DNA of 32,000 nucleotides, taken from positions 72,705 through 104,704 of the forward strand of contig JAITBP010000006.1 of the NCBI GenBank assembly GCA_031283585.1, in the 5' to 3' direction. The notes below the pieces were generated by a model, which was not told the DNA's origin, ran no database searches, and saw nothing but the letters and a program-made list of their open reading frames with translations. This stretch comes from Puniceicoccales bacterium (GTDB lineage: Bacteria; Verrucomicrobiota; Verrucomicrobiia; Opitutales; LL51). A program made the position numbers and the translations under genes. Shown in pieces: positions 22,174-28,555 of the stretch (position 1 is its first letter; each line of letters begins with the position of its first letter).

Positions 22174-23928
22174 ATGGGAAAAATAATTAGATCACTTGCA
22201 TTTATATTGATTTTAACACCATGTTTACAAAAATATGGTTTTATTGCCTGCTTGGCAGGTAATATAAAGGCAAACGTTACCGTTGATAGTAACGGTAAAA
22301 AATCTAATGTTTCCATCCGGAAGAAACGAATCCTCGGCTGGGATAAGAAAAAACGCAATAAAAAAATAATCAAAATAGTCTCCGGCGAGTCATCAAAAGC
22401 AATTACCTATAAGGTAGATAAACAAAGGCCCGGTGGAAATCAAGAATCGGCTAAAAAGGATGATGCAAAAGATGGTAAAATAAAAGTTAAAGGCCAAAAT
22501 CCACACTCTAATATCAAACTTGCAAATAACCAAAAGGATGCTAAGCCAGGTGACCAAAAATCTGCCCCGGCCGGTGAATCGACGGCTAGCAAAGCTCCTG
22601 CGGATACTCTGAATTTATCAAAAGATCAAATCAAAACCATTGCGGCTAAAGTAGATGAGATATTACTCGATGGAGCTAAATCCACATTAAATCCGGATGC
22701 ATTAGGCCCCATAAACTATAAGCGCAAATTTGCTGATAACAGTTCCCTGACCATCACCGTTGGCTATGATAAAATTGCCAAGGAAGGATTGGCCTATAGT
22801 TCGGTTGAGATTACACCGGACACCGGACAATCAACAAAATTTACACTTTTACATTTGGCCACATTACTATCGGACACTTCCGGCAAAAAACTACTAAATG
22901 TAATCAAAGATTGCCCAACATTTGACATATCCGTAGCCTGCACATTTACTTTCAAAGGTCAAAAATACACGGACATACAGCCGTTGGACTTTGCAATACA
23001 TAATAATAACACAGCCATTATAGGAGAAACAGTGGCCATTGCTAAAAAGCAGGACAAGTTAAATGACGTTCTATTAATCGATAAATTGCAATTCGGCGAT
23101 CTTACTATAACAAACGGCACAATCCTCCACAAGGCGATTGCATCCAAGTTAGAAAAAATATCGCTATGCATAATAGAAGCCTGTAAAAATGATAAAGAAA
23201 TGCTAAAAACTCTATTTTTAACCAAGGCTGAAATAGAAGTCAAAGGAGACAATCATTATAAAATAGCTGATACCACACCGCTTTTCCTAGCAGTATATTA
23301 TAAATATGAAAATATTGTAAATGCATTGCTAAAAGTTGCCCAGGCGCATAACCTAAGTGTTTTTGGCGAAAAATGTGGTTTTGAAGCAAATGATACCAAA
23401 ATAAACGGTTGCACACCATTTTTTTTCGCGCTATGCTACCAAAGTGATGCAGATATATTACTCAAGGCCGCGCAGGCTAATAACATAAGCATAGATATCC
23501 TGGCCGAGAAATGCGATCTACTAGAAACAAATACGGTAAAACTCACGAACATAACACCATTTCATAGCGCAGCGGTCTTCCCAAATATTCGTTCCGCTAT
23601 TGAAAAATTATTAAAGTCAGATAAAATTTCGGAAAATATCGAGGCAGCATTGTTGGCCAAGGCTGATCTCGAAACCAAAGGTAACACCCATATCGCTATC
23701 ACAAACGGTACCGTATTACATTTTGTAGCAGCCTATAAAAACAATCTTGACTATATCGATTTGATACTAAGCACCAGCAAAGATAGCAAAACCGATTTGT
23801 TAAACGCAAAATGCGATGAGTTCAAATCGCAGGATGGCCAAAAACAACAAAATATTACCGCTGCCGATATCGCAAGCTTCTTCAAAAACGAAGCTTATAA
23901 GCAATTGCTGAATGCACAGGCTAATTAA
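22174..23928 (+). CDS. hypothetical secreted-type protein: signal-like N-terminus, Lys-rich cluster, one copy of an unnamed ~95-aa module, divergent ankyrin-like repeat array
   Basis: The ATG at 22174 is preferred over the GTG at 22168. Repeats such as TTPLFLAVYYKYENIVNALLKVAQ, GCTPFFFALCYQSDADILLKAAQ and GTVLHFVAAYKNNLDYIDLIL. Paralogous to both ends of the next gene. Confidence 0.7.
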   Translation: MGKIIRSLAFILILTPCLQKYGFIACLAGNIKANVTVDSNGKKSNVSIRKKRILGWDKKKRNKKIIKIVSGESSKAITYKVDKQRPGGNQESAKKDDAKDGKIKVKGQNPHSNIKLANNQKDAKPGDQKSAPAGESTASKAPADTLNLSKDQIKTIAAKVDEILLDGAKSTLNPDALGPINYKRKFADNSSLTITVGYDKIAKEGLAYSSVEITPDTGQSTKFTLLHLATLLSDTSGKKLLNVIKDCPTFDISVACTFTFKGQKYTDIQPLDFAIHNNNTAIIGETVAIAKKQDKLNDVLLIDKLQFGDLTITNGTILHKAIASKLEKISLCIIEACKNDKEMLKTLFLTKAEIEVKGDNHYKIADTTPLFLAVYYKYENIVNALLKVAQAHNLSVFGEKCGFEANDTKINGCTPFFFALCYQSDADILLKAAQANNISIDILAEKCDLLETNTVKLTNITPFHSAAVFPNIRSAIEKLLKSDKISENIEAALLAKADLETKGNTHIAITNGTVLHFVAAYKNNLDYIDLILSTSKDSKTDLLNAKCDEFKSQDGQKQQNITAADIASFFKNEAYKQLLNAQAN

Positions 23929-23970
23929 AATTAAGCTAATCAAACAAGAAAAATTACCTAATATGCAATG

Positions 23971-27000: not shown

Positions 27001-28555
27001 TAGAGAAGAACTTAACCAGGCCATTACCGACCTAAAACCAGTGTTTTCTCAACAACAAGTTACGCCGAATGCACCGGTAGCTAGATCTAATACACTAACC
27101 CAGGACGATGTTAAAAATATTACAAATACAATTTCTGGGTTGTTAACAAATGAGAACAGGGATTGCCAAGTACGAAAAAATACAACGTCGGATATAATCG
27201 AATATACAAACATAAAAATTTATGATACTTATAATCACACTGATATTAAAAAAACCATTTATATAGATTATTCTAAACTCGCTAACGAAGGCCTGGAAAG
27301 TCCGTGCGTAAAAATTAATTATAACAACAGTGATAAATTTTTTACCATTCTACATCTTGCTGCAATATTAAAGCCTAGTAAGGTTGGAATAAATCTACTA
27401 AAAACTATTAAGGGCCACAAAACCTTCAACATATCAGCAATATGTCCATATAAGCTGGTGTGTACACCTGATCTAGATTTAACCGTATTGGAATTTGCAA
27501 TAGCCATTGGCAATATGGATTTTGCAAGAGAGTTACTTAACATTGCAAAAGAACAAAATAAACTTCACAGCATATTGAAGGCATCTACTGGTAAATTTAC
27601 TACAAAAAGTATGGGCCAGCTTTCCAAGCTTATTGATATTGAAAATAGCACAATTCTACATAGGATGATTGCGCATTGTAGAACAGATGCCATCGGCGTA
27701 CTACTAGAAGCGTTTAAAGGTGACCAAAATGCGCTGAAAGCCATGCTTTTGTCCAAAGCAGTCTACAAAACATCCATAGAATGGTCGCAAGATTCAGGAA
27801 CCTATGAAGTCAATGACTGCACACCACTTATCCTAGCAATGAATAGTGAGAATAGAGATGTTGCAAAGGCCATACTCGATGCAGCCCAAACCCTAGATAA
27901 ACCTGCTTTGTCAGAAATTATTAATAGCACATGCACTTTTAACCTAAATGTTAGTGGCTTTGTCAAAATAACCAGGTGCACTCCATATATCCTTTCAATA
28001 ATTCCTCATTTTGTTAACCAAAAGGCTAGAATCTATATGCAGAATATTTTAACCGACATTGCAAAAAATAATAATATAGATATTTTAAATGCCACCTGTG
28101 ATATTGATTCTTATCTCGTGGAGATGAGAAATGTAACGCCGCTTCACATCCTTGGCCATGGGAATATTCTTAGCAGCAAACCGGGAGATAATTATGAATA
28201 CGCGAAAATGCTACTAGATAAATCTAAATGGCTAGGAAAAGAAAGGATCAGAAATGCATTACTGGCCAAAGCCGATTATAAATATAAAAAGAATGATAAT
28301 TCCCGTAATGTCATTGGAGTTGAAGATGGCACCCCATTGCATTTTGGCGCCACAAATAAAGAGTTTATCCGATTGATAACAATCCATGGCTGCGCTAGCA
28401 ATACCATTAATCAGAATGATATATTGAACGACCCATGCAAAAATATTATTATGCGTGATGGTACCACAGCACAAGGTATTACACCCTATAGCATTGCTAT
28501 ACTTACAACCACTGATAACGAGATACATTTCCTGCTAAATCCTAATAAAAACTAA
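24029..28555 (+). CDS. giant hypothetical protein (about 1508 aa): signal-like N-terminus, Arg-rich cluster, six copies of the unnamed module, Pro-rich linkers, two divergent ankyrin-like arrays
   Basis: The ATG at 24029 has AAGGA 7 nt upstream; the ORF-track start at 24005 is a TTG. The single long ORF has a coding-like composition throughout. Architecture is derived from the translation (see findings). Confidence 0.75.
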   Translation: MVKTIKSFVAILALGQCLLALDGIECLALANQPTMRINASNRRRNRRRHMMQRRRRARRERQKNRSNRQISMQGININRKARSLPQPNTTLYTTTSSYNYNRPIITQPSSIPQMPIGTMTRIGDKIHRALCDNKFVPLTNVATSKQIKYAGLIIDDKKVTVTIDYNRIASEGISSPCVEIRNLDSNPIVFNLLHFATALTDESRISFLEVIQEDQKIDVSRKIRFTIDKLEYNVNPLYFAIYFNREDVVKKLLDIAKDKDQLDKICDLQETKILTTGLQEKYTILHRAILSESSDKITQHILDALEDKIGLLLNTKTDIKYDEFETSNCSPFLLAIFYGNVAIVNKLLTTAKTYKINSIWDACNHMIYKNEHLINPTPHQIAKFFNKNDIIELLNQAEKSSITSPQPPTSVPQPQHPSEHRPQPMTSVPPQITLTQVQLILNDIAVCLVLNSNHNCEYTLDETKKIAKFNNVIIKGQNATLDINYNDLVTKGLNSDCVILNGGYLTLRGLADYLYANAKQMLLNIIKNLEAQYSQPAKPAPHYPSSPTPAHHPATYQKPQGSAPMLTSEQIDFIEFVRETINVALGYKNAKETGNLYQTEYTKLLDNPFIIDYKEFVTNGLNSRCVILNDNRITLRELADKLHKYVGEYLKGAITQIDGYYEQLNKSKTPTVPASSPAPKPTQTPYNQPTAPNYPASPTPAHQPATYQKPQGSAPMLTSEQPQHPSEHRPQPPTSVPPQITLTQVQLILDDIALCLVLNSNHNCEYTLDETKKIAKFNNAIIKGQNATLDINYNDLVTKGLNSDCVILNGGYLTLRGLADYLYANAKQTLLNIIKNLETQYSQSAPKPPQPLYKQPTAPHYPPSYTPAHQPVKIVAPKPSAYQSPQAYHPGSAPVFTKSALLHQSSQPTLNKGQVELIGIVRGIINNILDGQITQEPGNPHKIKYTGLLANPFIIDYMELVTNGLNSRCVILNDNHLTLNELADKLYDRAVREELNQAITDLKPVFSQQQVTPNAPVARSNTLTQDDVKNITNTISGLLTNENRDCQVRKNTTSDIIEYTNIKIYDTYNHTDIKKTIYIDYSKLANEGLESPCVKINYNNSDKFFTILHLAAILKPSKVGINLLKTIKGHKTFNISAICPYKLVCTPDLDLTVLEFAIAIGNMDFARELLNIAKEQNKLHSILKASTGKFTTKSMGQLSKLIDIENSTILHRMIAHCRTDAIGVLLEAFKGDQNALKAMLLSKAVYKTSIEWSQDSGTYEVNDCTPLILAMNSENRDVAKAILDAAQTLDKPALSEIINSTCTFNLNVSGFVKITRCTPYILSIIPHFVNQKARIYMQNILTDIAKNNNIDILNATCDIDSYLVEMRNVTPLHILGHGNILSSKPGDNYEYAKMLLDKSKWLGKERIRNALLAKADYKYKKNDNSRNVIGVEDGTPLHFGATNKEFIRLITIHGCASNTINQNDILNDPCKNIIMRDGTTAQGITPYSIAILTTTDNEIHFLLNPNKN
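25265..25633 (+). repeat. copy 1 of a near-identical ~370-nt intragenic repeat (module A)
   Basis: Aligns at a constant +924 nt (308 codons) offset to 26189..26557 with only a handful of substitutions. Protein differences seen: M433/P741, N450/D758, V454/L762, V480/A788, M529/T837, A539/T847. Confidence 0.9.
26189..26557 (+). repeat. copy 2 of the near-identical intragenic repeat (module A')
   Basis: See copy 1. A second short repeat (SPTPAH[HQ]PATYQKPQGSAPMLTSEQ) occurs at about 25664..25738 and about 26117..26191. Confidence 0.9.

Follow-up and report, generated by a model that had tools for sequence, protein, structure and literature searches.

Ankyrin repeat proteins (Pfam clan Ank: PF00023, PF12796, PF13606) are stacks of units made of a beta-hairpin and a helix-turn-helix, with the TPLHxA motif at helix 1. 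Among the bacterial examples, RARP-1 of Rickettsia has ankyrin repeats at its C-terminus, preceded by a Sec signal and a disordered stretch (bioRxiv 10.1101/2022.02.23.481736), and is periplasmic in R. parkeri (bioRxiv 10.1101/2022.02.23.481736; review PMC9553169). Bd3460 of Bdellovibrio is also a periplasmic ankyrin protein (PMC4686830), and signal peptides are present on 78% of the 98 ankyrin proteins of the Dependentiae bacterium Chromulinavorax destructans (PMC6561590). In secreted ankyrin effectors (Anaplasma AnkA, Legionella/Coxiella Ank, Dependentiae) the repeats are 33 aa long and a C-terminal signal directs secretion by a T4SS or T1SS.

Two neighbouring genes, pA and pB, located in a 32,000-nucleotide stretch of a Puniceicoccales MAG (hereafter the window), encode proteins with the same motif and, by prediction, the same type of stacked unit. 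On architectures compared by description only, RARP-1 and pA/pB were alike in the order of their parts and in having no enzymatic domain; RARP-1 is, however, conserved across its genus and has ordinary repeats, whereas pA/pB showed a strongly polybasic, apparently disordered region, long-period repeats, a cap module and very fast evolution. With the secreted effectors pA/pB shared ankyrin scaffolds in bacteria with host-directed secretion systems, but neither the C-terminal signals nor the 33-aa repeats, and no homology to the Anaplasma, Legionella/Coxiella or Dependentiae effectors was detected.

Layout of the two genes

The likely true starts were the ATG codons at 22174 for pA (MGKIIRS...) and 24029 for pB (MVKTIKS...), in agreement with the database entries and with the N-termini of the homologues. 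The genes and their main regions were as follows (positions in the window):

22174..23928, + strand: pA coding sequence, ATG start, 584 aa (ORF; NCBI MDR2735563.1, LBB20_01830; identical to P0002)
22933..23925, + strand: repeat array of pA, 7 ankyrin-type units with long hairpins and 45-51 aa in length (AF2 model; Pfam Ank; Foldseek)
24029..28555, + strand: pB coding sequence, ATG start, 1508 aa (ORF; NCBI MDR2735564.1, LBB20_01835; database entry P0001)
24692..25264, + strand: N-terminal repeat array of pB, about 4 long ankyrin-type units (TPLHxA-type motifs at aa 243, 291 and 338; Pfam Ank_3 and Ank_2; alignment)
25265..27091, + strand: pB central region, four free-standing modules and Pro-rich linkers (module HMM; composition)
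25301-25642, 25700-26029, 26225-26563 and 26735-27058, + strand: the free-standing modules of pB (module HMM)
27440..28552, + strand: C-terminal repeat array of pB, about 7 long ankyrin-type units (motif spacing; 30.7% identity to the pA unit; Pfam Ank at aa 1270-1293)

The initial annotation had described pA and pB as paralogues, and two BLASTP alignments bore this out: residues 129-569 of pA matched 1009-1498 of pB (30.7% identity, E 7e-41), and residues 3-441 of pA matched 9-411 of pB (24.5% identity, E 1.6e-25). The proposed order of pB, an N-terminal unit followed by four free-standing modules with Pro-rich segments between them (23-33% Pro) and a C-terminal unit, was confirmed, as was the AT-richer composition of the pair (GC 0.377 in pA and 0.382 in pB vs. 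0.415-0.457 in the flanking genes). GC3 of both genes was 0.33-0.35.

Ankyrin-type repeats and the proposed cap module

In the four family proteins (pA, pB and two homologues from other genomes, P0004 and P0005), TPLHxA-type motifs recurred every 45-57 aa, a single gap of 65 aa excepted, and 31 instances of T-P-L-H-x-A marked the start of the first helix. The long-period ankyrin-like repeats of the initial annotation held. This spacing did not agree with the repeat length of about 33 residues of canonical ankyrin, and the family was consequently classed as a variant with long hairpins rather than with the canonical ankyrin arrays. Pfam scores exceeded the gathering thresholds in pA (Ank_2, 31.8 bits with a cut-off of 27.3; Ank, 30.2 with 21.1; Ank_3, 25.6 with 22.3) and in pB (Ank_3, 39.9; Ank, 33.8; Ank_2, 31.5 bits).

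AF2 models, for which the input alignments were shallow (5 and 9 sequences), gave 7-8 strand-turn-strand-helix-helix units spaced 45-51 aa apart for the pA unit (pLDDT 86.3, pTM 0.83), and pLDDT 83.4 and pTM 0.76 for free-standing module 5 of pB modelled alone. The Foldseek search of the pA model against the PDB returned 43 matches at E <= 1e-3 (best 4e-7), every one an ankyrin-repeat protein or a designed ankyrin (DARPin) construct, including ankyrin-1, FEM1B, IkB and Notch. The arrays thus modelled as ankyrin solenoids, a point on which the initial annotation could have failed. The predicted fold of pA/pB is one continuous ankyrin-class solenoid with a long beta-hairpin and two helices per unit; in the model it is the length of the two hairpin strands, 5-7 residues each, that brings the repeat to about 48 aa instead of 33. 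It is further set apart from canonical ankyrin arrays by TM-scores of only 0.3-0.46 and by a dedicated module of about 100 aa which heads the array and also exists free-standing. The modules attached to arrays were:

22606..22932, + strand: pA cap module, formed by helix a1, a hairpin with one helix and a hairpin with two helices, the last unit being repeat 0 (alignment, HMM, AF2)
24350..24691, + strand: pB module 1, ANK-attached (HMM E 3.8e-39; the HMM envelope takes in the last part of the basic region)
27074..27439, + strand: pB module 6, ANK-attached (HMM E 2.2e-39)

The initial annotation had counted seven copies, and all seven were recovered in frame at its coordinates; the only copies that the module HMM detected in the six-frame translation of the window were one in pA and six in pB. 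The columns invariant across copies (I, Y, G, V, A, L, I) were all hydrophobic or Gly, and the module is for this reason best read as non-enzymatic.

Sequence searches of the module against Pfam, NCBIfam and the PDB gave no match, and Pfam Ank gave none on nine modules at E <= 10; the confident match to a described domain that would have spoken against a new module did not appear. The C-terminal 45 aa nevertheless aligned in register with the family's own repeat profile (hhalign score 20.5, P 0.001; 7.6 +/- 2.1 in 200 column shuffles, of which one reached 20.5), whereas the N-terminal half scored at background (6.7). AF2 placed the C-terminal half of the pA module, in register, at the position of repeat 0. 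The best reading of these models and alignments is that the solenoid is capped at its N-terminal end by the module, which consists of an amphipathic helix, a half-unit of hairpin and helix, and the first full repeat. With the C-terminal half as repeat 0 of the same solenoid, only the N-terminal part of about 55 aa (helix, hairpin, helix) would be new. The view that the module could not be placed in any family held for this part, which matched nothing in Pfam, NCBIfam or the PDB, but probably not for the C-terminal part of about 45 aa, which hhalign and AF2 indicate to be a long ankyrin-like repeat.

The SAND domain (GMEB1, PDB 1oqj) was the top match of the 7-copy module profile (hmmsearch, E 0.81) and the top Foldseek match of the module (best E 0.23 with probability 0.69; range E 0.23-0.33, TM 0.28-0.37). 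The domain and the module share a local pattern, Y/W-x-K-h-V-x-x-G-h-N-x-+-C-V-x-x-N-D, and the order of elements (hairpin, short helix, hairpin, helices). SAND identity was rejected: the matches were non-significant, 1oqj was lost from the 9-sequence profile once the two outside homologues were added, and the module alignment contained neither the KDWK motif nor the conserved Trp column of the DNA-binding surface.

Distribution and divergence of the family

Among 1.84 billion representative proteins, the module profile had no matches beyond pA, pB and a single protein from each of two further Puniceicoccales MAGs; the profile made from the seven window copies detected the modules of the latter two proteins (E 6e-6 and 5e-4, same 1.84 billion proteins). 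The family profile retrieved 0 ordinary ankyrin proteins at E <= 1e-3 from 5.8 billion sequences. The carriers were three T3SS-bearing Puniceicoccales MAGs, together with a nearly identical strain from a single sequencing run. Homologues common in free-living bacteria, which would have weakened the initial proposal, were thus not encountered, relatives being confined to the three T3SS-bearing MAGs.

In the other two MAGs (L002 and L003) a single gene of 779/796 aa was located between tsf and thrS, the same site as pA/pB, suggesting that it was duplicated, fused and expanded in the present genome. Two pairs of DNA duplicates were found in pB:

25265..25564, + strand: direct repeat, 97% identical to 26189-26488 (DNA self-comparison)
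25710-25957 and 26742-26989: second pair, 78% identical

The first pair is, on its sequence, a recent internal duplication. The fusion and expansion initially proposed for pB was upheld by the tsf-thrS synteny and by these duplicates. The ancestral state would have been one gene between tsf and thrS; in this genome the gene would have been duplicated and two copies fused, and the cap may then have been amplified into four autonomous mini-solenoids on flexible Pro-rich tethers.

Between genomes the family protein was 26-30% identical, vs. 66-84% for ten genes flanking it; the corresponding values for L002 and L003 compared with each other were 48% and 79-92%. This fast divergence, together with the 97% duplication inside pB and a basic tail of variable length, is best read as evolution of the interface type, though the fast divergence could also reflect relaxed constraint.

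Predicted export signals and possible function

The N-termini of pA and pB comprised a hydrophobic leader and a basic tail:

22174..22260, + strand: pA predicted Sec signal peptide, MGKIIRSLAFILILTPCLQKYGFIACLAG, which holds a C-x8-C pair (charge/hydropathy heuristic)
22261..22602, + strand: pA polybasic low-complexity region, net +18, pI 10.3 (composition)
24029..24118, + strand: pB predicted Sec signal peptide, MVKTIKSFVAILALGQCLLALDGIECLALA, with A-L-A as its last residues (charge/hydropathy heuristic)
24122..24364, + strand: pB Arg-rich basic region, net +20, pI 12.0 (composition)

Signal peptides were judged by simple hydropathy and charge rules. All four family proteins had an n-region of +2, a 12-aa h-region within residues 7-20 (KD 2.35-2.42; residues 7-18 and KD 2.35 in pA) and a polar c-region with ALA or AG at its end. 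They thus had the n-h-c form of a signal peptidase I substrate, judged also by small residues at -3 and -1; the predicted leader ends were ...CLALA|N in pB, ...CLTAG|T in P0005 and ...CLAG|N in pA, that of P0004 (...QLMG|V) being less clear-cut. All four proteins are probably Sec-exported, and the leader looks cleavable. The conserved Cys pair of the initial annotation was present as C-x8-C in three of the four members, within the predicted signal peptide, but missing in P0004. A lipoprotein was rejected, since the second Cys was preceded by FIA, GIE or DIQ (no lipobox [LVI][ASTVI][GAS]C) and P0004 had no Cys. The basic tail after the leader varied in length in the four proteins (80-230 aa, net +18 to +35) and is best read as disordered in all of them.

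The explanation we favour, with a probability of about one half, is that pA and pB belong to a fast-evolving family confined to one lineage and are non-enzymatic scaffolds which leave the cytoplasm through Sec and bind multivalently at the envelope or at the interface with a host, rather than classical T3SS effectors. RARP-1 and the signal-peptide-bearing ankyrin proteins of C. destructans are precedents for such an export. The exported protein would most likely work at the cell surface or at the host interface, with the periplasm as a possible site. A partner may be bound multivalently by the repeated caps and by the hairpin/groove side of the solenoid, and the basic tail may serve as an electrostatic anchor to an anionic surface (membrane, envelope polymer or nucleic acid). 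A role in host interaction is plausible because the gene is fast-evolving, expanded and provided with a polybasic tail; a "host" for the source MAGs is itself an assumption drawn from the T3SS and the ankyrin repeats.

A possible, though less probable, explanation is that pA and pB are envelope factors resident in the periplasm, like R. parkeri RARP-1, Pseudomonas AnkB and Bdellovibrio Bd3460, which would bind the cell's own envelope or secretion proteins after Sec export; the Pro-rich and basic segments would then be spacers spanning the periplasm or contacting peptidoglycan/LPS. The RARP-1-like order of Sec signal, disordered region and ankyrin repeats is consistent with this, as are the conserved chromosomal site amid housekeeping genes in three genomes and the result of the Pfam search, which found 0 outer-membrane secretion signals or autotransporter domains in pA/pB. 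The low identity relative to the neighbours and the expansion in copy number would, however, be unusual for binders of conserved self partners, and the family was not found beyond the three MAGs.

The initial annotation had also noted a T3SS locus nearby, which Pfam located:

5540..16580, strand not assigned: T3SS cluster, context (SctP/HpaP, SctO, SctN, SctL, SctK, SctJ, SctI, SctD, CopN/TyeA, SycN-like, YscX; Pfam)

SctJ of this cluster has a canonical lipobox (LLAGC). The basic clusters of pA/pB are reminiscent of nucleus-targeted AnkA. In a further explanation, pA and pB might be T3SS effectors injected into a eukaryotic host, with the solenoid binding a host protein and the basic cluster acting as a nuclear localization signal. 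The cluster looked complete, lay 5.6 kb upstream of pA and was also found upstream of the family gene in L002 and L003 (linkage kept in 3/3 MAGs), the gene is AT-richer than its neighbours and fast-evolving, and ankyrin repeats are common among bacterial effectors (PMC6561590). We consider this unlikely: by the heuristic used, hydrophobic Sec-type leaders were present in 4/4 proteins, while T3S signals are polar and unstructured, and the ORF list showed no chaperone-like small acidic ORF flanking pA or pB. The link to the T3SS is moreover weak because four housekeeping genes (lptG, leuS, rpsB and tsf) stand between its genes and pA, and it may be mere conserved gene order.

That pA and pB are decaying genes under relaxed constraint, a repeat protein drifting without specific function and expanded by slippage or recombination among repeats, would fit the very low orthologue identity, the low GC3, the low-complexity linkers and the recombination scars in them, but is very improbable given ORFs of 584-1508 aa intact in four genomes or strains, the conserved core residues and repeat register, the confident AF2 models, and a signal peptide and domain order that were likewise conserved.

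The paralogous proteins and their module

Two ORFs, here called pA and pB, lay on the same strand between tsf and thrS, their starts set by the database entries and the N-termini of homologues.

Features of the locus (window coordinates)
21500-22090: tsf, upstream flank of pA and pB
from 22174 (ATG start), + strand: pA, 584 aa
from 24029 (ATG start), + strand: pB, 1508 aa
28741-30606: thrS, downstream flank of pA and pB

Both are hypothetical proteins at NCBI (pA, LBB20_01830, MDR2735563.1; pB, LBB20_01835, MDR2735564.1), from a 104.7-kb contig; the MAG bears the label "Puniceicoccales bacterium" (Verrucomicrobiota). 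A Logan assembly (run SRR14710909) contained the same strain, differing by 5 SNPs over 6.8 kb; exact-sequence look-ups with pA and pB returned no contig, and tsf alone returned a near-identical Logan contig.

The initial annotation had described pA and pB as paralogues built from seven copies of a module of about 95 aa and from long-period repeats. All of this was confirmed as observation, and the accompanying interpretation was partly supported. pA aligned with the C-terminal unit of pB at 30.7% identity (495 columns, E 7e-41) and with its N-terminal unit at 24.5% (E 1.6e-25). Seven module copies were in frame where the initial annotation had put them, sharing invariant I, Y, G, V, A, L and I, and an HMM scan of the six frames returned exactly seven (one in pA, six in pB). 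Motifs of the TPLHxA type recurred every 45-57 aa.

An AlphaFold2 model of the pA unit (module plus repeats, 5-sequence alignment; pLDDT 86.3, pTM 0.83) predicted seven strikingly regular strand(5-7)-turn-strand(5-7)-helix(7)-helix(11-13) units, 45-51 aa apart. Searched with Foldseek against the PDB, it gave 43 matches at E <= 1e-3, every one an ankyrin-repeat or designed ankyrin protein, including ankyrin-1 (4e-7), FEM1B/C, DARPins, IkB and Notch; the TM-scores were only 0.3-0.46, in keeping with a different period. Pfam Ank models scored above their thresholds in pA and pB but covered only the helix pair. Model, Foldseek and Pfam together thus point to ankyrin-class solenoids with a hairpin about 15 residues longer in every repeat. 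HMM, motif and predicted fold all make pA and pB members of the ankyrin superfamily; their period (about 48 aa) departs from its 33 residues, and they are filed as a long-hairpin ankyrin variant with a dedicated cap module.

That the module could be placed in no known family, as first noted, held for its N-terminal half, which was without match, but less so for the other half, which is probably a repeat. In the pA unit model the module consists of helix a1, a hairpin with one helix (32 aa) and a hairpin with two helices (45 aa). This last unit stands exactly one period ahead of the first recognised repeat, and its F-(T/S)-L-L-H-L-A...LL..IK parallels the TPLHLA...LL..AK of the repeats. When the module alignment was compared by hhalign with an alignment of 31 repeats, module columns 65-113 paired with repeat columns 4-47 at a score of 20.5, against 7.6 +/- 2.1 for 200 column shuffles (1/200 reached 20.5); the N-terminal half by itself scored at background. 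Free-standing module 5 of pB was predicted with the same order of elements (AlphaFold2, 9-sequence alignment; pLDDT 83.4, pTM 0.76). Register, motif, profile comparison and the module 5 fold therefore suggest that the module is the solenoid's N-terminal cap plus its first repeat, and in pB this piece is best described, from the models, as having become an autonomous mini-solenoid. Every invariant position holds a hydrophobic residue or Gly, so nothing points to a catalytic site.

Other assignments of the module found little. NCBIfam returned nothing, Pfam gave no recurrent family for any module at E <= 10, PDB sequence profiles gave only matches at E > 0.08 that shifted with the profile used, and Foldseek searches of the PDB and the viral BFVD library yielded no match with E below 0.2. 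The best match, non-significant in both searches, was the SAND domain of GMEB1 (1oqj): E 0.81 with the seven-copy profile, and E 0.23 with TM <= 0.37 in Foldseek. The two share the order of their structural elements and a local pattern, Y-x-x-L-V-x-x-G-L-N-x-x-C-V-x-L-N-D, but the match vanished once two outside homologues joined the profile, and the KDWK motif is absent from the module. The resemblance was treated as chance or generic hairpin-helix likeness.

Distribution, synteny and history of the family

An exhaustive search of 1.84 billion sequences with a seven-module profile built from the window alone returned only five proteins: pB, pA, P0003, P0004 (779 aa) and P0005 (796 aa). P0003 (1282 aa, Thr/Val/Asp-rich tandem units, E 3e-10) was rejected as a compositional/repeat false positive; its matches covered partial stretches of the profile and its architecture is unlike that of pA and pB. 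P0004 and P0005 (LBI37_01535, MDR1458187.1; LBH49_02845, MDR0351559.1) are the outside homologues, from two further Puniceicoccales MAGs; their modules were reached at E 6e-6 and 5e-4, and both proteins consist of a hydrophobic N-terminus, a long basic region, one module and 8-9 long repeats. Scans of GTDB genome contigs, JGI metagenome contigs and IMG/VR viral contigs revealed no further relatives. A word-indexed search gave no match with the seven-module profile and pA only with the unit profile, missing pB, P0004 and P0005 although their own sequences stood in the query profile; a direct query with P0004 did recover these three. Since the exhaustive search also recovered them, the word-indexed search is leaky for this family and its negative results call for caution.

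In both other MAGs a single family gene lies between tsf and thrS, downstream of the same T3SS genes as in the window, so the window genome carries a one-gene locus in duplicated, expanded form. In the window the T3SS cluster contains, by Pfam, SctP/HpaP, SctO, SctN, SctL, SctK, SctJ, SctI, SctD and CopN/TyeA, together with SycN-like and YscX genes, and is separated from pA by lptG, leuS, rpsB and tsf. A literature search on Puniceicoccales with a T3SS returned nothing.

The four free modules of pB arose by [a-b] x 2 duplication, as judged from two pairs of DNA repeats (25265-25564 with 26189-26488, 97% identical; 25710-25957 with 26742-26989, 78% identical) and from recombination scars visible in the linkers; on these identities the duplication appears to be in part very recent. 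TRF missed it because its period exceeds 500 nt. The initial annotation was also right that pA and pB are AT-richer (GC 0.38 and GC3 0.33-0.35, against 0.415-0.457 and 0.43-0.50 in neighbouring genes); low GC and GC3 hold for the orthologues in the other MAGs too, so the composition is long-standing in this gene rather than the mark of a recent import.

Ten flanking genes of the window shared 66-84% identity with their counterparts in the two MAGs, and 79-92% when those MAGs were compared with each other; for the family protein the values were only 26-30% and 48%, respectively. The family gene is therefore by far the fastest-evolving at a conserved locus.

Ankyrin proteins with a signal peptide occur widely in some host-dependent bacteria (78% of the 98 in a Dependentiae genome), so the general kind is already known. 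New in this family are the uniform period of about 48 aa, a cap that is autonomous and a tiny distribution; its repeat architecture is real, clean and unusual, and its evolutionary history instructive. If the models hold, this is a natural ankyrin-class solenoid with a uniform period of about 48 residues and long two-stranded fingers, whose N-terminal cap turned into an independent, duplicating domain. On a small scale this would show a new domain arising from a repeat array, an event that can be dated by the 97% DNA identity of the duplicates. The long-hairpin geometry could interest repeat-protein designers. With the family known from three MAGs only, its importance is currently local.

Probable export and putative function

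In all four family proteins two basic residues are followed by a hydrophobic core of 12 residues at positions 7-20 (Kyte-Doolittle 2.35-2.42) and then by polar sequence up to ALA|N, LAG|N or TAG|T. By sequence, this leader has the n-h-c pattern expected of a Sec signal peptide and is too short for a membrane anchor. A lipoprotein was rejected, the leader being without a lipobox and the SctJ of the window showing that the organism uses a canonical LLAGC. The conserved Cys pair of the initial annotation (C-x8-C) is present, but it sits inside the leader and is missing from P0004, and a functional pair in the mature protein was discarded.

Behind the leader lie 81-233 aa of low complexity (net charge +18 to +35, pI 10.3-12), in pB an Arg run (NRRRNRRRHMMQRRRRARRERQ). 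P0004 (locus L002, 10001-12340) and P0005 (locus L003, 10001-12391) are single-copy orthologues whose Lys-rich tails are much longer, at 227-233 aa (net +33 to +35). These share a conserved element, KINVKNQNK, with a recognisable counterpart, KIKVKGQNP, in pA. Pro makes up 23-33% of the pB linkers. Linkers 3 and 4 (window 26024-26242 and 26573-26752) contain two PTAP and several P-x-Y-P or PPSY-like motifs (QPTAPNYPASPTP, QPTAPHYPPSYTP), which resemble the short motifs bound by eukaryotic TSG101 and WW domains, a likeness for which a chance origin is easy at 25-30% Pro.

Sequence anatomy, distribution, synteny and evolutionary rate are shown by the data, and the fold is predicted. Going beyond them, we propose, with a probability of about one half, that pA and pB are exported binding scaffolds at an exposed interface, whether the cell surface or a host. 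Exported by Sec, they would act outside the cytoplasm as non-enzymatic scaffolds, the hairpin/groove face of the solenoid and the tethered cap modules binding a partner multivalently and the basic tail holding the protein on an anionic surface. The main rival, a periplasm-resident factor, is a possible but weaker reading. Precedents for it are Bdellovibrio Bd3460, a periplasmic ankyrin protein, and Rickettsia RARP-1, which is found in the periplasm of R. parkeri and likewise runs from a Sec signal through a disordered region to ankyrin repeats. An exposed interface is nevertheless favoured over a housekeeping periplasmic role by the fast divergence, the expansion, the varying tails and the Pro-rich tethers. 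Secretion as T3SS effectors, for which the upstream cluster might speak, is less likely: the leader is hydrophobic, housekeeping genes intervene and no chaperone gene lies alongside. Functionless drift ranks lower still, given the intact long ORFs and the conservation of core, register and architecture. Least credible is that the module is a bacterial relative of SAND, a chromatin-binding fold of eukaryotes, and not just a solenoid cap, and that pA and pB, with the Arg/Lys-rich tail as an NLS-like element and the four free modules of pB giving multivalent chromatin binding, are nucleus-directed nucleomodulins. Their producer would then be a verrucomicrobial symbiont living inside host cells or nuclei, of the sort described as the "Nucleococcus cluster" among protist endosymbionts (PMC8204192).

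The family stands out as fast-evolving and probably exported in T3SS-bearing Puniceicoccales, and its members are candidate molecules by which uncultured Verrucomicrobia touch a partner or host.

Other features of the neighbourhood

Directly past the tsf stop codon (22096-22113, + strand) there is a weak hairpin with a T-run that resembles a terminator and hints at a separate transcription unit starting at pA, though the terminator scan overall barely exceeded shuffles, and the promoter and terminator scans were uninformative. Rfam gave no match across the window.

The HpaP/SctP-like protein of the T3SS cluster (5540-6784, - strand; Pfam HpaP 1.2e-08, FliK-like C-terminus) contains about seven tandem 63-nt (21-aa) units at 5970-6414 (77-86% matches; ...PSQPED.A.PI.VDG.VS...); repeat-built proteins of this type serve as needle-length rulers.

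Downstream of thrS, a very AT-rich ORF of at least 430 aa (GC 0.316) runs on the + strand from 30709 to beyond 32000, leaving the window at its end, and gave no Pfam match. As rplM directly follows thrS in both related MAGs, this ORF is a second lineage-specific gene inserted beside pA and pB; its product is possibly exported, to judge from a hydrophobic, signal-like N-terminus (MDGIIIKRASFYVLCFSLIGINV...).
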